A stretch of DNA of 28,448 nt from Candidatus Levyibacteriota bacterium (lineage in GTDB: Bacteria > Patescibacteriota > Microgenomatia > Levybacterales > GWA1-39-11): assembly GCA_016204525.1 (NCBI GenBank), contig JACQKO010000001.1:1-28448 (forward strand), given 5' to 3'. This document shows, piece by piece, positions 3,998 to 20,696 of this stretch. The notes under the pieces are model-generated. The model did not search any database. It was given only the letters and a program-made list of their open reading frames with translations, and had not been told where the DNA came from. A program made the position numbers and the translations under genes. Positions within the stretch are counted from its first letter, which is position 1; each line of letters opens with the position of its first letter.

Positions 3998-4771
3998 TTT
4001 TTAACAACAGGGTATAAAAGTGGGCTTGGGCGTTATCTTTATGAATATTTCGGGGGGGAGGGTTTTGATCGCAATTCTAAACTCGAACAAGTTAGCCGTG
4101 AGGGCGCGGATGTGATAATTCACTGTGCATCCCAACCACCTGGAGCTGTTACATCAAGTACGCTTTATCCATTTATTGATGATAATGTGTTACTTACAGA
4201 GCGAATTAGCCGAATTCGCCATAAAAAATTTATTTTTATTTCATCTGTCGACGTTTATCCAAAAAACTCTAGTTCACATAACGAAGAAAAAGATATTCCA
4301 CTTGACTCAATAACAAATTTGTATGGTATAACTAAACTCATGTCCGAGTCCATCGTTAGAAACAAGTGCCCGAATTATCTAATTCTTCGATGCGCGGCGC
4401 TTCTTGGAATCTACTCGCGGCAAAACTCCCTGATCAAAATAGCGCAAGAAGAAAGTCCGGTACTCACTCTTACAGCTTCCTCCGTCATGAATTATATCCT
4501 GCACAGACAAGTTGCTGAATTCATAAAACATGCTGTAGACAATAATCTTTCCGGCATTTACAATGCGGCATCTTCTCAAAATATAACGCTTGCACGTGTT
4601 GCTAAGTTACTTAAGAAAAATGTAAATTTTGGTCCTCATTCATACATGGTGGGGAATATTTCCAATCGAAAAATTTCTAATGTTTCCTCTCTCTTTGCGA
4701 GAACGTCCGAAGAAATTATCGAGCAATTCATAAAGGAGGACCTGATTAAGAGGAAGGCATCTATATCATGA
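3992..4771 (+). CDS. NAD-dependent epimerase/dehydratase family protein
   Basis: TGYKSGLG degenerate Rossmann motif, ISSVDVY, YGITK. I preferred ATG 3992 over the in-frame TTG at 3959. Confidence 0.8.
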   Translation: MTFLTTGYKSGLGRYLYEYFGGEGFDRNSKLEQVSREGADVIIHCASQPPGAVTSSTLYPFIDDNVLLTERISRIRHKKFIFISSVDVYPKNSSSHNEEKDIPLDSITNLYGITKLMSESIVRNKCPNYLILRCAALLGIYSRQNSLIKIAQEESPVLTLTASSVMNYILHRQVAEFIKHAVDNNLSGIYNAASSQNITLARVAKLLKKNVNFGPHSYMVGNISNRKISNVSSLFARTSEEIIEQFIKEDLIKRKASIS

Positions 4772-5430
4772 AAACGACACTTTTGGTCCCGACTTTAAAT
4801 GAAGTCGAGGGTATGAAGGCAGTTATGCCGCGCGTAAAAAAACAATGGGTCGATGAAATATTAGTGGTGGATGGCGGCTCTACGGATGGAACCGTAGAAT
4901 ACGCAAAGCGACGAGGCTATCGGGTCGTAATGCAAAAATCAAAAGGAATTACAAATGCTTATCGCGAGGCCTTAAAAGTTGTCAAAGGCGACTACATTGT
5001 AGCTTTTAGCCCGGATGGAAATTCTGTTCCTGAGGCTATACCCAAACTTATCAAAAAAATAAAGGAAGGTTATGATATGGTAATCGCGTCAAGATACGCA
5101 AAAGGCGCAAAAAGTGAAGACGATGATCCGGTTACGGCTTTAGGCAACTTCCTGTTTACAACAGTAATTAATATATGTTTTGGCGGGCATTATACAGATA
5201 CGCTTGTTATGTTTCGAGTATTTAGGAAAGATATCGTTAAAAACATTCCAGTTGGTCTTCCCAGAGCTGGCTTAGAACCAATTCTGTCTATTCGATGTGC
5301 CAAACAAAAGCTTAAGGTTACCGAAATTCCAGTCAGCGAACCTAAGCGGATTGGTAGTCCGCGCAAGATGATTCCTATTCTAAATGGCCTAGATGTTCTC
5401 CGCCTGATATTTTTAGAGCTAATACACTAA
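4768..5430 (+). CDS. GT2 glycosyltransferase (polyprenol-phosphate sugar synthase / DPM1-like)
   Basis: PTLNE, VVDGGSTDGT, SPDGN, DMVIASRY. ATGA overlap with the upstream gene. Confidence 0.85.
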   Translation: MKTTLLVPTLNEVEGMKAVMPRVKKQWVDEILVVDGGSTDGTVEYAKRRGYRVVMQKSKGITNAYREALKVVKGDYIVAFSPDGNSVPEAIPKLIKKIKEGYDMVIASRYAKGAKSEDDDPVTALGNFLFTTVINICFGGHYTDTLVMFRVFRKDIVKNIPVGLPRAGLEPILSIRCAKQKLKVTEIPVSEPKRIGSPRKMIPILNGLDVLRLIFLELIH

Positions 5431-6210: not shown

Positions 6211-6270
6211 GGAGGAAAAATGGTAAAGTCTCATACACGTGCGAATAGAGAAAGTTATCAAAACAATTGA
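6211..6270 (+). other. Shine-Dalgarno GGAGG plus a 16-codon ORF (MVKSHTRANRESYQNN*) overlapping the GTG start of the next gene
   Basis: GGAGG at 6211-6215, ATG 6220, TGA 6268-6270. The downstream gene is in the +1 frame and is closed upstream by TAA at 6224-6226. Confidence 0.5.
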
Positions 6271-8458
6271 CAAAGGAACATGGATTGTTTTTCTCTTTTT
6301 TGCGGTTACTGTCTTCTTTGTCTTCCGTGATTTGTTTAACTCATATTTTGTTGCAGATGAATGGTTTCACTTTACTCATTACTTACCACTGACTAAAAAA
6401 AGTGAGGGATTATTCACTGCAATGCTGTCTCCATTCATAAGCACTGGAGAATTATCAGGAGGTCAGCACGTAAATCCCATTGCTTCAAGTATATTTTTTC
6501 TAAATTCCAAACTTTTTGGCATGAATTACGTTCCTTACGCGGTTATGTCGCTTCTTCTGCATGCGGTAAATAGTTTTTTGGTCTTTCGACTAATACTATT
6601 ATTTCTTAAAAATAACTAGGATCGTGTTTTATTCGCATTATCGGGTGGAGTATTTTTTGCTTTTGCTCCAACCCCACTTCATACTGTAACTGGAGCAGCC
6701 CCTTTTTATGGAGAAAATGTTTTGTCGGTAACCTTTGTACTTTTTAGCATCCTTTTACTAAAACTTGCATATTCTTTTAAGAATAAAAAATACCTATACC
6801 TTTCCCTCCTTTCGCTTTTTGGGGCAGTATTTAGTAAGGAAACGGCCGGATATCTTTTTCTCCTTTTACCAATACTTGTGTTTATTGAGGAAAGGGTAAG
6901 AAGAAATAGGACCTTCTCTTTGAGGTTTTTAAGTAAGTTATTTGTTTTTTGTTTAATACTTTATGTTGTGATTCGATTTGTGATTCCTGGAATCGGAAAT
7001 CTTTTATCAGGCGCTAACAAAATTCGAGCAAAAGCAGTTGATACGGGTACAATTGTTAGTCGCGATCTATCGATTCATAAAAACTTACCTCTTGAGATTG
7101 TATTCAGAACCATTACATACCCAATAAGAATGACAGGTACTGTATTTGTTCCGCGAGACACAGTAGTTTTTATGGTTGAAGCACTGGCACCGATTGTGCG
7201 TCCTACACCTTCAGGCGGCGACCGGACAGGACAGGTTGAATTTATCTTGGGGTCAGGACCCTATACCGTCATTTATTTATTTAGTATTGGGATGCTTATA
7301 TATATATTTTTAAAAATCAAAGATTCGTTGTTGAGTAAAAAGTACCAAGAATCCGCGGCCTTAGTTTTTGGCATTGGCACTATTTTTCTTGCTTCATTAC
7401 CTTTGGTCGTGATTATCTTTGCTTTTCCAAGATGGGGATATGATAGTTATTTTGATGGAAGGCACTACTACCACCCGACAATTGGTGCAGCAATTATATT
7501 TCCGTTTTTGCTCGAAGACACTTCGAGATTTATCTCGAAAATATTTAAGAGCCGCGTAAAAGCATCAGCAACTTTTGTAGGACTTTTTTTATTATGGCTA
7601 ATTAATAACATGTTCATTTTTAACTATAACTTTGGCCAGATTGTTAATAAATATAATGGAGACAGAAGAGAAGTTTTGGTACAACTTAAAAAACATCTCC
7701 CTGTCCTACCCAAAAAAGTAGCATTTTACTTTGAAACGGATGGTAATTCCATTTATGGACCGATACTTCCTTTTCAAACAAGTGTTCCACAAGCAATAAG
7801 TGTTTACTATTATAAAACAAGCCCATTACCTAACAGTTTTTTCGAAAATACAATACTTAATGGAAAAGCTGAAGGATATCAAGTTGCCCAAGGACAAGGA
7901 TTCGGGTACTACATGAATAAAGATAAGCTGGCAGAAGATTTATCTCGGGGCGAATTTCAGGTTTCGAATATCTACGCTTATCATTATAAAGCGGGCGAGG
8001 TTAGACTTTTGGATATTTCTCAAAAAATTCGTTCCGAAATGGCTGATTATCTTGTGGAGGCAGAAAAAACCAAAGACTGGAAGTTATTCAAGGATAAAAT
8101 TCAAGTATTTTCGTTTTTGTATCCACCTGAGGCAATTATTAATCAAGAAGACAATACAATGACAATCAATATTACTCATCCATCATTTTCTCTTAATCTT
8201 TTCGTAACTATTGTTTCACCAGGATTTAATGCAAATGAATATTTACAAATAACAAGTAAAGGCAATTTGGGGATTGTTAATTCCAAAAAAGTTTCATATG
8301 ATAAGTTCCATTCAAAAGACGCTGTGGCTATTAGTGAAAATGGTCAAATCGAATACTTAATTCAGTTAACAGATAAATTGATCGTCGGGGAGACAGATCA
8401 AAAAGATAACACGTTTGTTGAGAAAATTTTAGGATCCATCGTGATACTTACAAAGTAA
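6239..8458 (+). pseudogene. Multi-TM GT-C-like membrane protein interrupted by one in-frame TAG (6617-6619); 739 codons if read through
   Basis: ORFs 6239-6619 and 6722-8458 share a frame. The 34 codons between them are open and hydrophobic (DRVLFALSGGVFFAFAP...). ADEW acidic motif follows the first TM. Confidence 0.7.
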
Positions 8459-9138
8459 TGGTTTTAAAAAAAAATAAATTCGAAGAGTTTTATTTCAAAG
8501 GATATTATCAGGGGATTGGAGATTTTAGTTTGGAGCGCGATCGGGAACTTACAAATTGGTTTAAGGGAATGTGTGAATATATCAATCGGTATTATCCAAT
8601 AAAGCGAGCACGCGGAAAAAAATTAATAGAATTTGGATGTGCAACTGGAGCCGCAGCTAATCTTTTCGCTGATTATGGTTTTAATGTATACGCAACCGAT
8701 GTATCAAAATATGCGGTTCGAGAAGCCCAAAAAAACTATCCCGACATAAAATTTAGCGTTGCTGACATGCAAAAACTCTTTACAAGGACGGGAGATTTTG
8801 ATATTGTGGTGGCGTTTGATGTAATAGAGCATTTAGATAAACCAGAAGAAGCGCTTAAGAATTCATACGAGATTTTAAAAAAAGGCGGAGTGTTAATTTT
8901 AACTACTCCAAATGACTATAAACACATGTCCAATGATCCGACTCACATTAATGTAAAAAAACCGCAAGATTGGCGAAATATCATCAGGAAAATTGGCTTC
9001 AAGAATATTATTGTTCGTCAAATAACATTCGTTCCATATTTGTATAGATTCAACTGGCGGCTGAATTTTGCGATACCAATCACAACTGCCTCGCCATATT
9101 TTATCTCGCCGGTATTTATAATAGCCCAAAAAGTTTAA
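8458..9138 (+). CDS. Class I SAM-dependent methyltransferase
   Basis: LIEFGCATG, TDVS, FDIVVAFDVIEHL, LKKGGVLILTTPN. TAATG coupling to the upstream gene. Confidence 0.9.
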   Translation: MVLKKNKFEEFYFKGYYQGIGDFSLERDRELTNWFKGMCEYINRYYPIKRARGKKLIEFGCATGAAANLFADYGFNVYATDVSKYAVREAQKNYPDIKFSVADMQKLFTRTGDFDIVVAFDVIEHLDKPEEALKNSYEILKKGGVLILTTPNDYKHMSNDPTHINVKKPQDWRNIIRKIGFKNIIVRQITFVPYLYRFNWRLNFAIPITTASPYFISPVFIIAQKV

Positions 9139-9141
9139 GTA

Positions 9142-12100
9142 ATGAAAAAGAGAATCATTATTGACCTTGCCATAATTTTTATCATTGGCTTATTGCCAAT
9201 ACTGTGGCTTCCCGGAGATTCGGTTCTTCTTGGTCATGATGCAGGACTCGCAATTGACCCATTAATGCACTTTCTTGACCGTATTCACGTATGGTCCCAG
9301 AGATTTAGTTTAGGTACCGACCAAAATGGGGCATTGTTGGGAGCGTTCTTAATACACGGTTTTGAAGCGCTTCTTGCATATCTTGGTTTGAATTTACATT
9401 TTGGGCAAATAGTCCAGTTTATTTTTTGGTTTACACTCCCAGGACTTGCAATGTACTTCTTTGCAGCAAGTTCTTTCAGAGACAAAAAATATTTACCCCT
9501 TATTGCATCTATTATTTACATGCTTAATTTTTATCTTCTTCAGGGGTGGTTTATAGCAGAGAGAACCAAATTCTCAATTTATATAGCTTTCCCTTTTGTC
9601 CTATATTTTCTGATCCGCTATTTGACAGGCAAGATGAAGTTTCTACCCTCTATATTGTTTTCCGGGATTATTCTTGGGATATTTAATGGGGGAGGATCAG
9701 TACCTCTTTATGGGGGTCTTCTATTCTCTGTGACTATTACGTTTATATACATAAACATTATTAATCTCAATCTAGCAACGCTCAAAAGAACAGTTCTCTA
9801 TACTCTTGGGGTCGCCGCCGTCTACTTTATTCTTAATGCGTACTGGATTATACCTTACGGCTTTTATGTTGTGGGGTTTTACGGCAGGGACCTTGCAAAT
9901 GTTGGAGGGTCAGAAGGGATCCTTGAGTGGGCTAAATACTTATCAGCAAAATCTACATTTATTAACCTATTTCGCGGACAAGGGATACCAGATTGGTACC
10001 TTAATCCATTTCATGCATACTCACAAAAATTCTTAACTAACCCGATTCTGATTTTAGGGTCATTCCTCTTGCCAATACTTGCATATGCAGCGTTTATTTT
10101 TATAAAGAATAAGCGTGACGCTTTCTTTATTTACCTTCTGATACTCATAAGCCTTGTTGGGATACTATTTTCATCAGGCCCTGAATCACAATTTGGCTTT
10201 ATATACGAGGCAATGGTAAGGTTCGTTCCAGGATTCGGTCTATTCCGCTCCGCTTTTTATAAATTTAATTATATGGTTTGGTTTTCTTACGGAATATTAA
10301 TTGGGTTTACGCTTGACGTCGTTCTCTCAAAAATAGAGGCCAAATATTTTAAAAAACACGCACTTGCCTTTTCAAAAATAGCTCTTATTTTGATTGTAGC
10401 CTTATACGTGTTATATCACTACCCAGCACTAGACGGGTCATTTCTCGATTATTCACATGAACCCGGCAAAGAACTTACAACAAGAGTTAATGTCCCAAAA
10501 TATGTTTTAGATTTTGGCCGTTGGGTTAATGCTAAAGACCCAAATGCAAGATACTTAGTTATGCCCCAACTTGGAAATACAAATGTTGTCTCCTATGACT
10601 GGCACTATTGGAGTATCGCTCCATTAACCAGTCTTCTTTCAAGGAATTCATTTGTTCATAATACAGCTCTTGTGCCTGAAAGTGAAAGGGTACTTATGAA
10701 TGAAATGTATGCCGCATTTTTGCGAGGAGATATGGAGAGCTTTAGAGATTTTGCTGATGTGTTTGCAATCGATGGGGTACTTCTTGAGAAAGATTACGAT
10801 TGGAAAAATGTAGCGTGGGGGACAATTGACCCCCGGGAACATGAGGAAACATTAAAAGCAAATCCTGATCTTTTTACGCTTGAAAAATCTTTTGGAAAAT
10901 GGGATGTATATAAATTCTCATTTAGGAATGAGTCACTGCGAATCAATTCAAGTACTAAATTAACATACCTTCAGGGAAAACTTGGCAAAGTTGTATCGTT
11001 CCCATATTTCTCCCCTAAGTCGCCTCTTTTTATAAGTGATATTGAAGGTAAAAATACGGAGTATTACGCAAAGAATGCATCAGATATATATCTTGCCCCA
11101 GAATGTGTCCAGTGCGACCTTGAGTATATTGGAACACCATTCTCATTTTATAACCCTAAGCTTTTGCCTGGGTCCGCGCTCTATCCTTTTATTACTTTTA
11201 GGGAGGAGCAAGTAAAGGCTTCATCAAAGGACTTTATGTCCCTGCTTAATTTTTACATAACCACTGCCAATAGGAGATTGATTGAAGTCAAGTGGATGGT
11301 TGAAACAAGAAATAAAATTGGAGAGATAATCCCAACAGTCGAGCGGTATAGAGGGATACTTGAAGAAATAGCCTTGCATCTTAACAAAGACGAGGCGGCG
11401 ACTATTGAAAATAGAGCGGCTATTCTTGTGACGTATCATATAGGTCAGCAAATTGGTCTTCTTGATTCAATATATAGGGAACAAATACTAAGCGTTTTCG
11501 AGCGTCAAGCTTTAGCCCGAGCATATAATGAAATTCTAAATATAGACAGGCTTGCACGCGAAAAACTGTGGGCAACAACTGATATGACTAATAAAAAATA
11601 TATATATGATTTGCCCCTGACCGGTGAATATGAGATGTTTGTCAAGCGCGGCAGCTTAACATACCCGGACACTGATGCTAGTGATACAGTTATAACATTT
11701 CGCGGCTCACAAAAAGAATTAAGACCAGTTGAGACAATAGGCGATTGGTTGTCTTTTGGAAAAGTTAATTTACTAAATAAGAAGACATTTATAGCAATAA
11801 AAGATGGTACTCTCTCAAATTTGGTTGAGCAAGTTGTGCCTTCTTTTACAGAAGGCGAGGAGGGAATAATTGTTAACAATATTAATGCCACGTTTACCAT
11901 TGACAGTTTGAACAAATGTTTCTATTACCAATTCCATGACTTAGAATTCTTAAATACCCAATACGCTGTCTCATTCACCTATAGAAACTTTTCCGACAAT
12001 AACAGTTTAAGTTTCTTCCATCAATTTGAAGGGGATGAGATGCCTCGCTATGGGACAAAGGACTTTACATTGACCAATTTCAGGTATGCAAATAAGTTTA

Positions 12101-12645
12101 CAAAACTTATCACGCCCAAAAATGGAAACATTAGATTAGTATTTTGTAACGCATATTTGTCACTTCAAGAGATTGGCACTTTTGAAAAACAATTGAATTT
12201 AGAGTTGTTACCTGAGAGACAAAACTTAATTGAAATTACCGGTATAACGTTTCACAAAGTATCTTATCCCAATGTCGTCCTATATAAGAGGCAGAAGGAC
12301 ATAGAGGATATAAATACAGTCACTAATTTTTCAAAGATTGACCCGGTAACTTATGAAGTGAACTTAACAAGTTCTAATATGCCGATTTCCTTAATGATGA
12401 GAGAAAGCTACGGTAAATACTGGAGAGTGTGTGATGAAAAAAACAAATGCCTTTCATATGATGATCCCTCGCACTTTCAAAATGCAGGTTTTGCAAATGC
12501 CTGGTTCATGAAAGATAGTTCTATGGGTAACAAATTAAATCTTTATTACTATCCTCAGAGATGGTACGAGATAGGAACAATTATTACGTTTGCATCTATA
12601 ACGTTAGTTTTAGGAATATGTTTACGTCTATTTATAAAAAGATAA
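9142..12645 (+). CDS. Large membrane protein, GT-C fold (AftD/YfhO-like) with a long extracytoplasmic region; paralogue A
   Basis: Many TM segments in the N-terminal ~430 aa, GHDAG acidic motif after TM1, PGFGLFRS, a large soluble region with CxxC, and a C-terminal YPQ...G TM anchor. Confidence 0.7.
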   Translation: MKKRIIIDLAIIFIIGLLPILWLPGDSVLLGHDAGLAIDPLMHFLDRIHVWSQRFSLGTDQNGALLGAFLIHGFEALLAYLGLNLHFGQIVQFIFWFTLPGLAMYFFAASSFRDKKYLPLIASIIYMLNFYLLQGWFIAERTKFSIYIAFPFVLYFLIRYLTGKMKFLPSILFSGIILGIFNGGGSVPLYGGLLFSVTITFIYINIINLNLATLKRTVLYTLGVAAVYFILNAYWIIPYGFYVVGFYGRDLANVGGSEGILEWAKYLSAKSTFINLFRGQGIPDWYLNPFHAYSQKFLTNPILILGSFLLPILAYAAFIFIKNKRDAFFIYLLILISLVGILFSSGPESQFGFIYEAMVRFVPGFGLFRSAFYKFNYMVWFSYGILIGFTLDVVLSKIEAKYFKKHALAFSKIALILIVALYVLYHYPALDGSFLDYSHEPGKELTTRVNVPKYVLDFGRWVNAKDPNARYLVMPQLGNTNVVSYDWHYWSIAPLTSLLSRNSFVHNTALVPESERVLMNEMYAAFLRGDMESFRDFADVFAIDGVLLEKDYDWKNVAWGTIDPREHEETLKANPDLFTLEKSFGKWDVYKFSFRNESLRINSSTKLTYLQGKLGKVVSFPYFSPKSPLFISDIEGKNTEYYAKNASDIYLAPECVQCDLEYIGTPFSFYNPKLLPGSALYPFITFREEQVKASSKDFMSLLNFYITTANRRLIEVKWMVETRNKIGEIIPTVERYRGILEEIALHLNKDEAATIENRAAILVTYHIGQQIGLLDSIYREQILSVFERQALARAYNEILNIDRLAREKLWATTDMTNKKYIYDLPLTGEYEMFVKRGSLTYPDTDASDTVITFRGSQKELRPVETIGDWLSFGKVNLLNKKTFIAIKDGTLSNLVEQVVPSFTEGEEGIIVNNINATFTIDSLNKCFYYQFHDLEFLNTQYAVSFTYRNFSDNNSLSFFHQFEGDEMPRYGTKDFTLTNFRYANKFTKLITPKNGNIRLVFCNAYLSLQEIGTFEKQLNLELLPERQNLIEITGITFHKVSYPNVVLYKRQKDIEDINTVTNFSKIDPVTYEVNLTSSNMPISLMMRESYGKYWRVCDEKNKCLSYDDPSHFQNAGFANAWFMKDSSMGNKLNLYYYPQRWYEIGTIITFASITLVLGICLRLFIKR

Positions 12646-13031
12646 CAAACATTTTTGATCGCGCAACAGATTTTGTTCGAAAGAATACTGTTCAAGTCGT
12701 GATTATTGTGAGTTGCTTTGCTGTTCTTGAATTAATCCAATCCTTTCCTTATGTAAACATAATTCCAAGATATCAGTTTTTAGTAATAAGCTTTGTGCTT
12801 TTGTTAAGCGTTGTTCTCCTAAGAGTTTTTATCTCAAGTAAATTAATTAATTATGTTGTCCTAGCTCTTTTTGTAATAAGCATATTTACTGCAATTCTAG
12901 ATATTGAACAAATTTCTAACTTGATTGGATTTGTCGCTTTTGTATTACTGTCTATAATGGTTATTAGACAAATCTTCCAAGATAGGGAAAAGTTAAAGGA
13001 GGTAGGCCTTGAAAAAGAGAGTCATATTTGA
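12618..13031 (+). CDS. Small membrane protein (~137 aa, about 4 TM); partner A
   Basis: Hydrophobic ORF. ATG 12618 chosen by analogy with partner B (28-nt overlap). Shares PYxNxI and SK.I motifs with 16485-16895. Confidence 0.7.
   Translation: MFTSIYKKITNIFDRATDFVRKNTVQVVIIVSCFAVLELIQSFPYVNIIPRYQFLVISFVLLLSVVLLRVFISSKLINYVVLALFVISIFTAILDIEQISNLIGFVAFVLLSIMVIRQIFQDREKLKEVGLEKESHI
12996..13003 (+). promoter_or_regulatory. Shine-Dalgarno AAGGAGGT for the TTG start of paralogue B
   Basis: Canonical SD 5 nt upstream of TTG 13009. Confidence 0.7.
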
Positions 13032-16000
13032 TCTTATTATTATTTTGGTCTTAGGTTTGATTCCTCTGTTGTGGTTGCCTTCGCAAAGCATTATTTTAGG
13101 GCATGATGCGGGATTAACCTTGGATCCTGTTGCGAATTTCTTAGACAGACTTTATGTTTGGACGCAAAGATTTGGTATAGGAACCGATCAAAGTTTTGCT
13201 CTTCTTGGCGCTTTTTTCATACACGGACTTGAGGCACTGCTTGCGTGGCTTGGGTTTGTGCCCGATGCCCAGCAGAAAATTCAATTTGTCTTTTGGTTTG
13301 TTTTGCCAGGTCTAACCATGTATTTCTTGGTCTACAAACTTTGGCCTGAGAAGCGATACATGCCCCTGATTGCTTCAACTATATACATGATCAACTACTA
13401 TATTATTCAGGCTTGGTTTGTCGCAGAACGGACTAAATTCTCGATATACGCGGGATTGCCGCTTTTCGTTTACTTTCTTCTCGCCTATTTTCTTAAGCGA
13501 ATGAGCCTTGTCAAAAGCGTCTTACTTGCGGGGTTAACTATAAGTATTTTCAACGGAGGAGGCAGCCTTCCCTTATATGGTGGTCTATTAATAATAATTT
13601 TTACTGTTTATGTTTATTTTGCTTTCTTAGATTTTAGAAAAAGAACCTTTGTCAACATTCTTTATTTCACGGCCGGACTGCTTTTGGTCTATCTTTTACT
13701 AAACGCTTATTGGCTTATTCCTTATCTATTCTACATTTTTAGTTTTTATGGTCGGGATCTGGCTCTTGCGGGCGGATCGGAAGGAGCGCTTGGATGGGCA
13801 GAGTATCTTTCAGAAGGCGCAACTTTTTTCAACATACTTCGTGGGCAAGGAATCCCTGATTGGTATCTAAATCATTACCACGCTTTCTCTAATAATTTCT
13901 TTACAAATCCAATTTTTATTAGCTTAAGTTTTGTTTTTCCTGTCGCGGCTTATCTTTCACTTTTTTTCGCCAAAGATAAAAAAAGTAAACTACTTATTTA
14001 TCTCTTGGTTATCCTAAGTCTCGTTGCTCTTGTTTTTACATCCGGGCCAAGGTCTCAACTAGGAGTAGCTTATAGATTCTTAGCTCTTTACGTACCGGGC
14101 TTTGCAATTTTTAGAAGCGTCTATTACAAATTCGGTTACGCATTTTGGTTTGCCTATGCAATATTAATAGCATTTACGATAGACTATATCCTCGCAAAAA
14201 TTCAGTTCAGGCTCCCAAAAATTGTGAAAAGCACCTTTGAGGTTGGGGCGCTTCTTACGTTTCTTGCTTTTATACTCTTTTATCACTATCCAATACTCGA
14301 CGGGTCGTTCCTTGACTATTCGCGTGAGCCTGGACGCGAGCGAACAACCCGCGTGAAGGTTCCAGAATATGTCTTCGAGTTTGGGAAGTGGATGAGCACA
14401 AAAGATCCGGATTTAAGATACTTAATCGTTCCGGAATTATCAGAAACAGGGTACGTTGCTTATGATTGGAAGTACTGGAGTATTGCTCCCCTAAATAGTT
14501 TATTTTCAAGACAGTCTTTTGTTCAAAATACCCTTCTTCTTCCACAGTCAGAGCGATTAATTTTACTTAAGATGTACTATGATCTTTTAAGACAAGATTT
14601 TAAGAGCTTCTTTGATTTTGCAGAGGTCTTTGCCATAAACGGAATAGTTTTACAAAAGGATGTAGATTGGAAGAATAGCCTATGGGGAAGTACTAATCCT
14701 AAAATTTATGAAGAGATAATAGAGAGAAGTCCGAATTTTAAATTAGTTAAAACCTTCGGCATGTGGAAGGTATACGATATTATTGGAAGACCATCCCCTC
14801 CACGCATTGTTGCAACTACTAGGCTCTCTTTTCTTGAGGGGGAGCTGAAGAATGTAATGTCGTTCCCACAATTTGATGCACGTGCCCCAATCTTTATGGG
14901 AGCTTCGGATAAGAAGAGTAGTCCATATTTTGTTAAAGAGGTATCAGAAGTATTTCTTGTTCCTGAATGCTTTAACTGCAGCCTTGAGGAAGGGGGGCGG
15001 GGAGTAAGTTTTTATGATCCAAAAATTTTGCCAGGCTCAATTCTCTATCCATTAATTGGAGTACAAGAGGATAATATCAGACGACAATCTAAGGATCTCA
15101 AGTCTATCTTAAATTATTATGTAACGATTTCTGACAGAAGAATCATTGAATCAAAATCAATGGTTGAACGAGAATTATTCTTGCACAAACTAGAAGAGAC
15201 TTTTGACCGTTACAGAGATATATTGTTAAAGCTAAGATCGTTAGTACGAAAAAAGGATTGGAAGATGACCGGACGAGAAGAGAGTACTGTTGCGGAAGAA
15301 ACGTCTAAACATCTTCTGGCTCAGGCATCCTGGATTGAACAACTAGATGATAGTAAGCACGTTTCAGAAGAAAGCAGAAAAATCCTTGCAGAATCATACG
15401 AGTTTTTACTTGATATAGATGCAAAGGTTCGTGAGAGGATTTGGATCACAAGAAATACTGAAGACAAACGTTACATTTTTGAACTACCTAAAGTAGATGA
15501 ATATGAAGTCTATGTAAAGAAGAGCACGTTCGCACATGAAGACAATTTTGAAGGATCAATACTAACGTTAGCTGAAAGGCCGGAGTTAAGATTAACCCCA
15601 ATAAGTGATGTAGGGGGGTGGCTATATTACGGCCCTTTAAGATTTGAAAGCGATAGGCTTAGGCTTGGACTTGTCGATTCCACAGTGAAAAACTTACTTA
15701 GTGGTGTTATACCAAATGTTCCAAAAGAGCAAAAAGGAATTGAAGCAGGACAGGAAACTCTATCATTTACAACAGATAGTATTGATAAATGTATTTCCTA
15801 TAAAATCTTAGGTCTTGAGACAATTGATACAAAGTATAGATTGACATTTGAATACAGGAATTTTACAGACAAACGTGACCTCTCTTTCTATTTGACATTT
15901 TCGGGGGAGAGAACACGCAAATTAGACATCCTTTCAACTTTCCTTTCAAACAGCAGAGGATTTAGAATGGAGGAGAGATTTATTACAACAAAAGACGGTA

Positions 16001-16512
16001 GAGTGACCATCTTTTTCTGTAATGGGTTTGCAACTCTTGAAGAAAAAGTAAAAGGAGAAGAGATTGGTCCATCTCTTATTCCCGGGCAAACAATGATTGA
16101 GATTAAAAACATAAAGCTTGTTAAGGTATCCCTTCCTGCTGTAGTTCTATATAAGAAGCAGAGAGATATAGCTACCCAAGATTATGTTAAATCTTTTGAT
16201 AGAACAAGCCCTGTGTCGTATACGATGGATATAGGAAAAAATACAGGTCCATTATCACTTACAATCCGTGAAAGCTATGGTAAGTATTGGCAAGTATGTG
16301 AAGAATCGAGGAAGTGCTACCCATTTGATGCAAAAGTACACTTTGCATCTGCAGGATACGGAAACGCTTGGTATTTTCCAGAAGGGATACAGGGGAAAGT
16401 TAAGATTTACTACCTTCCCCAACTAATGTTTACTATTGGTTCATATATTTCTGTTACAAGTTTCGTTATAATACTTTTTGCCCTATGTTACGATATTTTA
16501 AAGAAAAAATAG
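13009..16512 (+). CDS. Large GT-C-like membrane protein; paralogue B
   Basis: Collinear with 9142-12645: GHDAG, GTDQ, ERTKFSIY, RGQGIPDWYLN, LDGSFLDYS, PECxxC, RESYGKYW. Confidence 0.7.
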   Translation: MKKRVIFDLIIILVLGLIPLLWLPSQSIILGHDAGLTLDPVANFLDRLYVWTQRFGIGTDQSFALLGAFFIHGLEALLAWLGFVPDAQQKIQFVFWFVLPGLTMYFLVYKLWPEKRYMPLIASTIYMINYYIIQAWFVAERTKFSIYAGLPLFVYFLLAYFLKRMSLVKSVLLAGLTISIFNGGGSLPLYGGLLIIIFTVYVYFAFLDFRKRTFVNILYFTAGLLLVYLLLNAYWLIPYLFYIFSFYGRDLALAGGSEGALGWAEYLSEGATFFNILRGQGIPDWYLNHYHAFSNNFFTNPIFISLSFVFPVAAYLSLFFAKDKKSKLLIYLLVILSLVALVFTSGPRSQLGVAYRFLALYVPGFAIFRSVYYKFGYAFWFAYAILIAFTIDYILAKIQFRLPKIVKSTFEVGALLTFLAFILFYHYPILDGSFLDYSREPGRERTTRVKVPEYVFEFGKWMSTKDPDLRYLIVPELSETGYVAYDWKYWSIAPLNSLFSRQSFVQNTLLLPQSERLILLKMYYDLLRQDFKSFFDFAEVFAINGIVLQKDVDWKNSLWGSTNPKIYEEIIERSPNFKLVKTFGMWKVYDIIGRPSPPRIVATTRLSFLEGELKNVMSFPQFDARAPIFMGASDKKSSPYFVKEVSEVFLVPECFNCSLEEGGRGVSFYDPKILPGSILYPLIGVQEDNIRRQSKDLKSILNYYVTISDRRIIESKSMVERELFLHKLEETFDRYRDILLKLRSLVRKKDWKMTGREESTVAEETSKHLLAQASWIEQLDDSKHVSEESRKILAESYEFLLDIDAKVRERIWITRNTEDKRYIFELPKVDEYEVYVKKSTFAHEDNFEGSILTLAERPELRLTPISDVGGWLYYGPLRFESDRLRLGLVDSTVKNLLSGVIPNVPKEQKGIEAGQETLSFTTDSIDKCISYKILGLETIDTKYRLTFEYRNFTDKRDLSFYLTFSGERTRKLDILSTFLSNSRGFRMEERFITTKDGRVTIFFCNGFATLEEKVKGEEIGPSLIPGQTMIEIKNIKLVKVSLPAVVLYKKQRDIATQDYVKSFDRTSPVSYTMDIGKNTGPLSLTIRESYGKYWQVCEESRKCYPFDAKVHFASAGYGNAWYFPEGIQGKVKIYYLPQLMFTIGSYISVTSFVIILFALCYDILKKK

Positions 16513-16895
16513 TTGCGTTTGTAGGTTTTAATAAACATTTTTTTGTAAGGCATTTGCCTCATATTGTTTTTTTAGTTTTCTCTTTTCAGTTTCTTGTTGT
16601 TGCGGGGGCTCTTCCATACTTTAATTTAATTAGCCAATATTCTTATTATGTTTTCACGACAGTATGGGTAATTGCAGTTTTTTTGTTCCGAAAACAAATA
16701 ACAAGTAAGTTTATATTGAAAATGATAATGATTCTAATCTTTCTCGGAATTCCGGTTGCGCTTTTGAGCTTTGCCGGTACTGCCGACGCCCTTGGATACG
16801 CTGTTTTTGTATTGATTAGCACTGGGGTCGTGAAAAAGAGTATGGAAGATTGGAGTATTATTAAGACTATTAAGAAAAATAGTGTTTTGGATTAA
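16485..16895 (+). CDS. Small membrane protein (136 aa); partner B
   Basis: Hydrophobic; LPYFNLI, TSKFI, GYAVFVL motifs match partner A. Confidence 0.7.
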   Translation: MLRYFKEKIVAFVGFNKHFFVRHLPHIVFLVFSFQFLVVAGALPYFNLISQYSYYVFTTVWVIAVFLFRKQITSKFILKMIMILIFLGIPVALLSFAGTADALGYAVFVLISTGVVKKSMEDWSIIKTIKKNSVLD

Positions 16896-18705
16896 AGGAG
16901 ACTGGCCATTTTATTGGCAAGAACATTTATCAAGCTTTACTCTCCCTGAGATTTGGAGTTCTGTTTGGCCAACAGGGTTGGGTGGGAATCAAGCAATAAT
17001 TCTGCCTCTGAAGTTATATCTTGAAGGGGTAGTAGCGCTTTTTGTAAACAATCTCGGTATTCCTTGGGAAATTGTCCAGATAATCTTCTTCTTTGGTTTA
17101 TTCTTTGTCCTCTCAATCTACGCAAGTTTTCGACTCACTAAGTCATATTTCGGCTCATTAATTTATACTACAAACACATGGATTCTCTTGGTCTTTTTTG
17201 GTGGTCAAATGGGAATAGCATTAGCCTACGCAATAGCACCTCTGGTTCTTAAGATATTTATTAACCTTATCGAAAATACCGTAGTCAATAAAAATTTCCA
17301 ATTTCAAATTTCCAATTTCAAATTTCCAATGATGGCGGGTTTGATCTTTGCGATTGAGGTCATGTTTGATATGCGAATTGCCCTTCTTACTGGACTAGTT
17401 GTTTTAGGCTATGTGGTTTTTCATCATGTTTTTATTCAACGGATTAATTTCAAACTATTCATAATTCATTATTCATTAGTCATTATTCTAGTAGTACTGC
17501 TTCATGCATTCTGGATTCTACCTAGTGTTTTTATTGCGTTGCGAGGAGGAAATGTTGCAAATATCGTTGATACAACTTACGCAAGTTTAGAATTTTTTAG
17601 TTTCGCAAAATTTGAGAATTCACTATCTTTGCTTCACCCAAACTGGCCGGAGAATATTTTCGGTAAAGTTGCGTTTATGAAACCAGAATTCCTGATAATC
17701 CCAATCTTAGCCTTCTCAAGTTTACTATTTTTCAGAAATTCGAAGCAATCAATAATTGAGCAATCAAGCAATCTGCCTGTCGGAAGGCAAGATCGAGCAA
17801 TTTTGTTTTTCGCGCTTATGGGATTGGCGAGTGCATTTTTAGCAAAAGGAACGCAAGAACCATTTGGATTCGTATTTAATTTTCTATACTCTAATATTCC
17901 AGGATTCAATCTCTTCCGAGATCCTGTCAAATTCTATATGTTAGTTGCGTTGGCATACTCGATACTTATTCCCTATTCGATTCGAAGCTTAGGCGGCTTT
18001 AAAAAGATAGCATTCGTAGCTTTTGTTTTCTTTTGGGCATATTTAAATTGGCCTTTCATAGTGAGGTCAAATTCCGGCATATTTAAACAACGGCAGGTTC
18101 CTCAAGAGTACGTTCGACTCAAGGAATTTTTGGTATCAAGGCCGGAATTTTTCAGAACGCTTTGGATTCCGAGCGTTCAGAGATTTGCATTTATGTCAGA
18201 TAATCATCCGACTCTTGCTTTCCAAGAAATTTTTAAATCTAAAAAACTTGACGAAACAGTTCTCCGAGATATGGCAGTTAAATATATTATAGTTCCTTAT
18301 GATTCGGAAGGCGAGATTTTTTTGAATGATCGAAAATATGATGATAAGTTGTATCAAAAAACCATCGCAGAACTTAATAAAATAACCTGGCTCAAAAAAA
18401 TAGAGAGACATGGAAAAATTGCGGTCTACGAACTTTCTAACCCAAAACCACATAGATTTGTATTGGGTAATAAATTAATTTTCTCGGAAAGCTTTGATAA
18501 GTTTTGGTACGCAGAATTCGGAGAGGAAAAAGTGTATTCAAAACCCCATGGAATGTTAAATAGCTTTGAGATTCCACAGAATCAACGAAAAAGCCTCACT
18601 CTTTCATACGAACCTCAAAAATGGGCGAATGTCGGATCTATAGTAAGTGGACTTACACTCCTTATCGTTATTGGAATTATTTATACTTCTTCAAGAAGGA
18701 AGTGA
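16882..18705 (+). CDS. Shorter GT-C-like membrane protein; paralogue C
   Basis: GDW acidic motif, HAFWILP, PGFNLFRDP, SESFDKFW and YEPQKW...G match A/B. The central soluble insert is absent. The start (GTG) is uncertain. Confidence 0.65.
   Translation: MFWIKGDWPFYWQEHLSSFTLPEIWSSVWPTGLGGNQAIILPLKLYLEGVVALFVNNLGIPWEIVQIIFFFGLFFVLSIYASFRLTKSYFGSLIYTTNTWILLVFFGGQMGIALAYAIAPLVLKIFINLIENTVVNKNFQFQISNFKFPMMAGLIFAIEVMFDMRIALLTGLVVLGYVVFHHVFIQRINFKLFIIHYSLVIILVVLLHAFWILPSVFIALRGGNVANIVDTTYASLEFFSFAKFENSLSLLHPNWPENIFGKVAFMKPEFLIIPILAFSSLLFFRNSKQSIIEQSSNLPVGRQDRAILFFALMGLASAFLAKGTQEPFGFVFNFLYSNIPGFNLFRDPVKFYMLVALAYSILIPYSIRSLGGFKKIAFVAFVFFWAYLNWPFIVRSNSGIFKQRQVPQEYVRLKEFLVSRPEFFRTLWIPSVQRFAFMSDNHPTLAFQEIFKSKKLDETVLRDMAVKYIIVPYDSEGEIFLNDRKYDDKLYQKTIAELNKITWLKKIERHGKIAVYELSNPKPHRFVLGNKLIFSESFDKFWYAEFGEEKVYSKPHGMLNSFEIPQNQRKSLTLSYEPQKWANVGSIVSGLTLLIVIGIIYTSSRRK
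17293..17330 (+). repeat. Intragenic heptamer tandem repeat AATTTC(C/A) x5
   Basis: aatttcc aatttca aatttcc aatttca aatttcc aat, encoding NFQFQISNFKFP. Confidence 0.85.
17458..17485 (+). repeat. Intragenic heptamer repeat TTCAT(T/A)A x4 (degenerate)
   Basis: ttcataa ttcatta ttcatta gtcatta. Confidence 0.7.
17744..17801 (+). repeat. AGCAAT repeat tract containing a 21-nt palindromic insertion (encodes LPVGRQD)
   Basis: AGCAAT at 17744, 17759, 17767 and 17796. TGCCT-GTCGGA-AGGCA hairpin flanked by ATC on both sides. Confidence 0.7.
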
Positions 18706-19967: not shown

Positions 19968-20696
19968 ATGAATTATAAAAGCATTTCTGTGTTTTTGCCG
20001 GTGTTTAATGAAGGAGAGAACATAGGAAAAGCTGTTTTGTCAATTAAAAAATATCTTGCAAAAAGGTTTAAAGATTTCGAAATTTTGGTGATAAGCGATG
20101 GAAGTACGGATAATACTAATGAAATTGTTCAAAAACTAGAAAAAAAAGATAGGCGAATTAAACTGTTCACCCGTAATAAAAGATTAGGCTATGGTGCAGG
20201 GTTAAGGGCGGGATTCGAAAAATCCACCAAGGATCTCATTTTCTACACAGACGCAGATAATCAGTTCGATATAAATGATATGGACAAGCTATTTCCATTG
20301 CTTGGTAAATACGATATTGTGAGCGCTTATAGAATCAAACGAAAAGATCCGCTAATGCGCATTTTTATTGCGAACGTTTACAATTTACTGGTACGACTAT
20401 TTTTCGGTTTAAAAATAAAAGACGTTGATGCCTCTTTTAAGCTTTATAAGAAGGAAACATTCGACGAGATGAAACTTATAACAAATACGGGACTAACTGA
20501 TGCCGAGGTTTTGATAAAAGCCCAAAAACAGGGATTTAAAATCGGTCAAATAGGCGTTCGCCATTATCCAAGGCTGCATGGACAAACGCCTTTCGAAATA
20601 GGTTCGAGAAATATTTTTTTTGCGCTTGTCAAACCGAAAGTAATTGTTGATATACTCCACGAAATGAAGATTTTATGGAAAGATCTTAAAAAATGA
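19968..20696 (+). CDS. GT2 glycosyltransferase (DPM1/ArnC-like)
   Basis: LPVFNE, SDGSTD, GYGAGLRAG, TDADNQF DxD motif, DVDASFKLY. Confidence 0.9.
   Translation: MNYKSISVFLPVFNEGENIGKAVLSIKKYLAKRFKDFEILVISDGSTDNTNEIVQKLEKKDRRIKLFTRNKRLGYGAGLRAGFEKSTKDLIFYTDADNQFDINDMDKLFPLLGKYDIVSAYRIKRKDPLMRIFIANVYNLLVRLFFGLKIKDVDASFKLYKKETFDEMKLITNTGLTDAEVLIKAQKQGFKIGQIGVRHYPRLHGQTPFEIGSRNIFFALVKPKVIVDILHEMKILWKDLKK

Follow-up and report, generated by a model that had tools for sequence, protein, structure and literature searches.

AftD, a mycobacterial arabinofuranosyltransferase (PDB 6W98, 6WBX, and 6WBY), is the described enzyme closest to the two-gene unit that is the subject of this report. The unit consists of a gene for a large membrane protein and a small gene that overlaps the end of the large one, and it is present twice in tandem in a stretch of 28,448 nucleotides from an uncultured, ultra-small bacterium of the Patescibacteria, a Candidatus Levyibacteriota bacterium (assembly GCA_016204525.1, contig JACQKO010000001.1, forward strand). 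We call this whole stretch the window; it is contig 62 of a 641-kb genome that is 76.5% complete (G000). In the cryo-electron microscopy structure of AftD, four helices (TM13-16) come after transmembrane helix (TM) 12 and form a bundle that contacts TM8 and TM9. Truncation of the protein by a stop codon at T1285 takes this bundle away and abolishes the function of the enzyme, the bundle binds acyl carrier protein (ACP), and homologues of AftD were reported in Actinobacteria only (bioRxiv 10.1101/2019.12.22.885152).

Two other kinds of system must also be compared with the locus. Systems of three components, namely a GT2 synthase, a small flippase, and a glycosyltransferase of the GT-C type, are an established pattern of extracytoplasmic glycosylation; examples are GtrA/GtrB/Gtr*, CsbB/GtcA/YfhO, and Citrobacter ORF15/ORF14/ORF12 (PMC11127046). 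The other is the eukaryotic oligosaccharyltransferase, in which small membrane subunits such as Ost4 are placed on the GT-C core of the catalytic subunit STT3.

From the analysis described below, we think it probable that each large gene and the small gene overlapping it encode a split AftD-type GT-C enzyme of two subunits. The two genes were duplicated together. The four genes of the tandem are as follows.

9142..12645, + strand: big1, an AftD-like GT-C glycosyltransferase of 1167 aa with an ATG start (PF11847, Foldseek, VIA)
12618..13031, + strand: small1, a four-helix membrane protein of 137 aa, predicted subunit of big1
13009..16512, + strand: big2, a paralogous AftD-like GT-C glycosyltransferase of 1167 aa with a TTG start (PF11847, identity with big1)
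16485..16895, + strand: small2, a four-helix membrane protein of 136 aa, partner of big2 (AlphaFold2 model)

Fold and architecture of the large proteins

Both large proteins matched the family PF11847 (GT-C_AftD), big1 with 32.9 bits and big2 with 30.6 bits, compared with a Pfam gathering cut-off of 26. When the whole genome was scanned with the same family, the two proteins scored 29.2 and 30.5 bits, again above the cut-off. The AlphaFold2 model of big1 had a predicted local distance difference test score (pLDDT) of 86.5. It consists of 11 TM helices (about residues 1-425), a periplasmic GT-C part (430-620), a helical domain (about 680-810), beta-sandwich domains resembling carbohydrate-binding modules (CBM; about 811-1137), and a single TM12 (1138-1166), and the charges of its loops are consistent with an N-in topology.

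The top match of this model in Foldseek was mycobacterial AftD (6w98_A, E 1.9e-18), followed by STT3, AftA, PglB, and ArnT. In the VIA comparison, big1 and 6W98 gave a Z value of 26.1 over 635 aligned residues with a root-mean-square deviation of 4.1 A, and residues 4..1164 of the model were placed onto residues 10..1280 of AftD. The Z values of other GT-C enzymes were 14-19, with the STT3 chains second-best at 17-19, and CBM4/CBM16-type structures matched residues 891-1040 of big1 with a Z value of about 10. In an alignment of 40 sequences (A3), the GHD motif just after TM1 (G31, H32, and D33) and four cysteines of the outer part were invariant. D33 is the invariant Asp within the GHDAG motif of the first outer loop.

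A profile of the large proteins did not find AftD among the chain sequences of the PDB, giving chance matches only (E at least 0.015). The link to AftD therefore rests on the Pfam match and on structure. Among the matches of that profile were weak ones to the stem of influenza haemagglutinin HA2 (residues 847-930 of P0001, E 0.015-0.25), which we judged to be chance.

The initial annotation of the window, which was made by reading the sequence, had described the large protein as GT-C-like, and the Pfam, Foldseek, and VIA results bear this out. Judging from the model and the Pfam family, the large proteins are AftD-type GT-C glycosyltransferases. They share with AftD the GT-C core of 11 TM helices, the periplasmic GT-C domain, the CBM-like outer domains, and the return of the chain to the membrane at TM12. 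They differ from it in that the outer part includes a helical DUF5667-like domain, in that their hosts are Patescibacteria, and in that their structure-based identity to AftD is 11-15%. They also differ at the C-terminus, because the chain ends after TM12 and the four-helix bundle TM13-16 is absent from it. Since the model aligns to residues 10-1280 of AftD, the large protein corresponds to AftD from which exactly the TM13-16 bundle has been taken away.

The small partner and the duplication of the pair

The small proteins matched no Pfam or NCBIfam family, even at permissive thresholds. A profile search in 1.84 billion representative proteins (one for each cluster at 50% identity) recovered about 50 clusters of relatives, nearly all of them 106-136 aa in length. 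In the alignments of this family (A2 and A4), an invariant Asn and a near-invariant Pro-Tyr form a PYxN motif at the end of TM1 that faces outward, and a near-invariant Gly precedes TM4. The AlphaFold2 model of small2 (pLDDT 96.3) shows an N-terminal amphipathic helix and four TM helices. The charges indicate that both termini face the inside, and this is the topology required to follow on from TM12. The family was confined to Microgenomatia-type Patescibacteria in the sources seen, and a search of the ESM Atlas with the small model returned unnamed clusters of the candidate phyla radiation only. A narrow profile (A1) gave no hits in a sample of 400 genomes from the whole phylum, and the broader profile A2 was needed.

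We then examined the position of the small gene in 301 genomes of the class, counting strong small-protein hits outside the genome of the window. Of 26 such hits, 25 directly follow a large hit and are encoded on its strand. Seen from the other side, a partner was recognisable for 25 of the 29 full-length large genes that could be assessed (24 by the profile, and one, with a PYAN motif, by inspection in G421). The large gene of G472 is followed by a hydrophobic ORF (open reading frame) of 120 aa that has no detectable similarity to the small family, and inspection revealed no small partner for the large genes of G653 and G493. Even large homologues with an identity of only about 30% (loci L010, L011, and L012) each have an overlapping PYxN protein of 120-128 aa downstream; the overlap of the large and small genes was 4-37 nt at the loci examined. 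For more distant paralogues of about 1010-1050 aa (G499, G274, and G645), the next gene encodes a divergent small-protein relative, which has a GYFxP(Y/F)(Y/F) motif. The related records carry the labels Patescibacteria, Roizmanbacteria, or Daviesbacteria.

These observations bear on the possibility that the small genes are mere co-transcribed neighbours or spurious ORFs that have no physical link with the large proteins. We regard this as very improbable. Small hydrophobic ORFs are indeed readily over-called, but those considered here belong to a conserved family of about 50 clusters in which an Asn is invariant and a Pro, a Tyr, and a Gly are nearly so, the model has a high pLDDT, and the position of the gene is conserved while the identity of the large gene falls to about 30%. 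The score of the predicted complex, described below, also stands against it. The neighbourhood survey and the complex prediction thus agree with the earlier suggestion of a dedicated small membrane partner.

In one genome (G588, locus L030, 829-2502, - strand), an open frame of 557 aa contains the small-protein domain (residues 58-154) and about eight further TM segments. We rejected the idea that it is a fusion with an AftD-like protein or with a protein like the 607-aa ORF described below, as the extra segments are related to neither. The frame may join the small subunit to a different membrane protein, or it may result from faulty assembly.

In the window, the overlap of the small gene with the preceding large gene is 28 nt for both small1 and small2. 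Moreover, the end of small1 shares 23 nt with big2, and that of small2 shares 14 nt with the next ORF, at 16882. The start of small1 is the second ATG of the ORF 12561-13031, and its orthologues begin at the same Met. A distance of 3867 bp separates the two large-gene starts, the two large-gene stops, and the two small-gene starts, and the small-gene stops are 3864 bp apart. The coordinates, the 28-nt overlaps, and the 3867-bp distances agree with those in the initial annotation, which had emphasized the exact repeat as a feature of the module. We could not retain this emphasis. The exact period arises because the lengths of the genes and their overlaps are equal, and the ungapped DNA identity at the 3867-bp offset is 46%, so that the duplication is not recent. 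The big-small-big-small order is kept in L003 and L004, with overlaps of 28 and 37 nt, and the spacing in L003 is 3924 bp. Accordingly, we do not take the period to mean that the repeat is recent or under constraint. L003 (CAZSQB010000001.1) is the closest relative of the locus, with 69% identity and the same gene order. Its record is titled "uncultured Gammaproteobacteria bacterium" and all other relatives are Patescibacteria; it is probably a mis-binned or mislabelled metagenome-assembled genome.

Over the full length, big1 and big2 are 45% identical, with 4+4 gap positions. The identity is 53% over residues 1-430 and 55% over 431-620, whereas it is 37% over 621-810 and 35% over 811-1137, in line with the earlier statement that the membrane half is well conserved and the outer half less so. 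The small proteins small1 and small2 are 30% identical. The trees of the large and the small proteins alike separate a type-1 from a type-2 clade, and big2 groups in the type-2 clade with its orthologues of L003 and L004. Since both trees are split in this way, the duplication copied the large and the small gene together and is older than the divergence of these genomes. In agreement with the initial annotation, the pair has been duplicated and has diversified, mostly in the outer domains.

Predicted docking and the nature of the small subunit

The complex of small1 with residues 1-620 of big1 was predicted with an ipSAE score of 0.88 (0.87-0.89 in three runs), compared with 0.00 for the best of three controls. 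The mark set by the tool is reached by 58 of 80 solved complexes and by 2 of 110 mismatched pairs, counts which hold only roughly here, because our own alignments were used. The runs agreed in at least 98% of the contacts, and the pLDDT of the partner was at least 83. On big1, the interface comprises residues 299-353, including TM8 (301-320) and TM9 (324-344), together with the outer-loop segment 272-278 and residues 203-208; on small1, it is formed by TM3/TM4. That is, small1 is predicted to dock on TM8/TM9 of big1, at the place where TM13-16 dock in AftD. The interface predicted for this cognate pair is confident, and its controls are clean.

The same annotation had suggested an undescribed glycosylation machine and had compared the small protein with accessory subunits of oligosaccharyltransferase. 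The first suggestion does not hold, as the large protein matches AftD up to TM12 and the small protein is placed by the prediction at the site of TM13-16. The two-gene unit is real, conserved, and tandemly duplicated, but it is of the AftD type with the terminal bundle split off, and not a new type of machine. With oligosaccharyltransferase, the unit has in common a GT-C catalytic subunit and, by prediction, a small membrane protein bound to the GT-C core. However, the small protein resembled no subunit of oligosaccharyltransferase in the PDB profile, Foldseek, and VIA searches, and the bundle of AftD itself is the closer analogy. In AftD as well as here, by prediction, a four-helix bundle lies at TM8/TM9; here, it is a polypeptide of its own, and its gene overlaps that of the large protein.

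Several points weigh against the interpretation as a split AftD-type enzyme. As the structure of AftD is solved and may have been learned by the prediction model, the high score of the complex could stem in part from likeness to it; the score supports an architectural equivalence without demonstrating binding. The large chain used in the complex prediction ended at residue 620 and hence was without TM12, and the numbering of the TM helices in the large protein is our own reading of the helices of the model. The profile of the small protein found nothing relevant among the PDB sequences, and Foldseek and VIA (wide, second-look) with the small model found generic helical hairpins only, such as the coiled coil of the ATP synthase gamma subunit and DgkA. 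Neither sequence nor fold searches gave a direct link between the small protein and AftD TM13-16, and homology and analogy are not separated by these searches. A search of longer lengths found no protein in which the large and small parts are fused, which is weak evidence. Still more distant paralogues of 1208-1361 aa, of which seven were checked, have a single C-terminal TM and are mostly without a small partner; all seven end in one TM, and we rejected them as fusions of a large and a small protein. Finally, no PP-binding (ACP) gene was found in G000 at its 76.5% completeness or in the near-complete relatives G477, G549, and G443, which carry the pair, although AftD's own bundle binds ACP. 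Such a gene is present in G607 and G484. Because the ACP gene was not found in the former four genomes, ACP docking is unlikely to be what the small subunit does in general.

The missing link by sequence or fold leads to another explanation. The small protein could be a true accessory subunit of the GT-C enzyme that shares no common descent with TM13-16 and has converged on TM8/TM9, for example a stabiliser, an assembly factor, or a regulator specific to Patescibacteria. The synteny and the predicted interface support binding equally in this case, no similarity to the C-terminal bundle of AftD is detectable in sequence or fold, and the family was confined to Microgenomatia-type Patescibacteria in the sources seen. 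Nevertheless, the large protein is without exactly the four helices that follow TM12 in AftD, and the small protein has the helix number, the topology, and the docking site that would be expected of the missing part. In addition, as the large proteins are only 11-15% identical to AftD, similarity within a helical bundle of 110 residues would be expected to be undetectable. Taken together, convergence seems rather unlikely to us; these points would be better accounted for if the small protein and TM13-16 shared an ancestor.

We also considered that the small protein might be a flippase of the GtrA/GtcA, Rv3789, or SMR-type (ArnE/F-like) kind, which feeds the donor to the adjacent GT-C enzyme in a three-component system. 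The locus resembles such a system: it has a GT-C enzyme that would act at the outer face, nearby genes of the GT2 type of polyprenyl-phosphate sugar synthase (two of them in the cluster, resembling DPM1/ArnC), and an adjacent small membrane protein with four helices, whose size and helix count are those of GtrA and SMR proteins. Three-component systems are, as noted above, an established pattern (PMC11127046), and we identified nothing else in the window that could serve as a flippase. In contrast, the small protein matched no GtrA, SMR, or MATE family, nor any other Pfam or NCBIfam family at permissive thresholds. The GtrA_DPMS_TM profile (PF04138) gave no match to either small protein at E<=1, while it gave 55.7 bits to a real GtrA domain elsewhere in the same genome. 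Among the structure matches listed there was no EmrE-like or other transporter fold, and no SMR chain, which does not exclude the SMR fold. Furthermore, the confident interface with the GT-C protein is predicted exactly at the site of the AftD bundle, and the small gene overlaps and is duplicated with each large gene, which fits a stoichiometric subunit. The prediction thus makes the small protein a subunit attached to the GT-C enzyme, as opposed to a free flippase, and we consider the flippase explanation quite unlikely.

The bona fide GtrA domain just mentioned is the sole GtrA_DPMS_TM domain of the genome (contig 79, 4952-5317; L024). It lies within an open frame of 379 aa, the size of which suggests a GT2 enzyme fused to a GtrA-like membrane domain.

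Surrounding genes and the proposed enzyme

Four further genes near the tandem are concerned in the following account.

8458..9138, + strand: SAM-dependent methyltransferase of 226 aa, ending 3 nt before big1 (Pfam Methyltransf_23/11/12/25)
16882..18705, + strand: third, short AftD-like GT-C paralogue of 607 aa (hhalign to the large-protein profile)
4768..5430, + strand: GT2 enzyme resembling polyprenyl-phosphate sugar synthases (Pfam Glycos_transf_2)
19968..20696, + strand: second GT2 enzyme, of the polyprenyl-phosphate sugar synthase type (Pfam Glycos_transf_2)

The 607-aa ORF aligned with the large-protein profile in hhalign with a probability of 99% (residues 25-536 against 54-605). It is without TM1 and most of the outer domains, begins straight in a segment resembling the first outer loop (MFWIKGDWPFYWQEH), and has a C-terminal TM. 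Its orthologue, with 37% identity, lies directly after the small gene in L010.

The module is surrounded by genes for sugar-nucleotide enzymes, namely several SDR epimerases/dehydratases, a DegT aminotransferase, and SIS, GHMP-kinase, HAD, and nucleotidyltransferase genes, together with methyltransferases and the two GT2 genes. The locus is a surface-glycan locus. The best NCBIfam similarities of the GT2 enzyme at 4768..5430 were to AglJ, dolichyl-phosphate hexose transferase, ArnC, and PpgS, all below the equivalog cut-offs; those of the enzyme at 19968..20696 were to PgfS, ArnC, and dolichyl-phosphate hexose transferase, also all below the cut-offs. On these family similarities, the former enzyme is a candidate maker of the lipid-linked donor. 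The local GT2 enzymes resemble polyprenyl-phosphate sugar synthases of the hexose type. The donor is probably not decaprenyl-phospho-arabinose, which would be another difference from AftD. A UbiA-family gene is present in genomes of the same genus, at a distance from the cluster.

A methyltransferase of about 206-228 aa is found directly 5' of the large gene in L010, L011, and L012 (class-I, SAM-dependent; three distant loci scanned), and L003 has an ORF of 225 aa in the same position, known by its size and place only. Within the tandem, the methyltransferase precedes the first large gene only. For the enzyme at 8458-9138, O-methylation of a sugar is one possibility. Further upstream, a gene for a membrane protein seems to be split into two parts at 6239-6619 and 6722-8458 (+), and the same place in relatives is occupied by a single ORF of 754-812 aa upstream of the methyltransferase (L003, 2769-5207; L011, 2076-4340). 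The 578-aa part (6722-8458) gave a weak match to TgpA_N only. It was rejected as a member of the AftD-like family, with an hhalign probability of 1.7%.

We propose that the split AftD-type enzyme would act as follows. The large subunit would provide the GT-C core of 11 helices, with D33 of the GHDAG motif in the first outer loop; its helical and CBM-like beta-sandwich domains may hold the acceptor glycan, and the re-entrant TM12 would end the chain. The small subunit, a four-helix bundle, would be made by translational coupling through the overlapping genes and would pack on TM8/TM9, the position that the essential, covalently attached TM13-16 occupy in AftD. On the outer side of the membrane, the holoenzyme would transfer a sugar from its polyprenyl-phosphate carrier to a glycan of the cell surface, and the donor would probably be produced by the DPM1/ArnC-like GT2 enzymes of the cluster. 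The duplication would give two holoenzymes in which the catalytic half is retained and the acceptor-binding half has diverged, probably for different linkages or acceptors.

We further speculate, as a doubtful extension of this proposal, that in organisms lacking ACP the detached subunit might represent the original functional module of AftD-type enzymes, with a lipid- or cofactor-binding or gating role. A hydrophobic groove might hold the polyprenyl carrier or help to flip it, and the loops of the active site might be controlled via TM8/TM9; we consider this detail a long shot as well. If this were true, each of the paralogous small subunits would tune its own enzyme, and the role of TM13-16 in AftD would be revealed.

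A search of the literature revealed no publication that deals with enzymes like AftD from the candidate phyla radiation. The present results extend the AftD family far beyond Actinobacteria. They also offer a named role for an unannotated small family and for the likewise unannotated proteins of 1100-1200 aa that recur in the surface-glycan loci of Microgenomatia-type Patescibacteria, organisms whose envelope chemistry is almost unknown. AftD is an essential enzyme of the mycobacterial cell wall, and the reason why its C-terminal bundle is essential is not understood. A bundle that is naturally separate and co-evolves with its enzyme makes the role of the bundle separable and testable, for example by trans-complementation or by the swapping of subunits between the paralogues.

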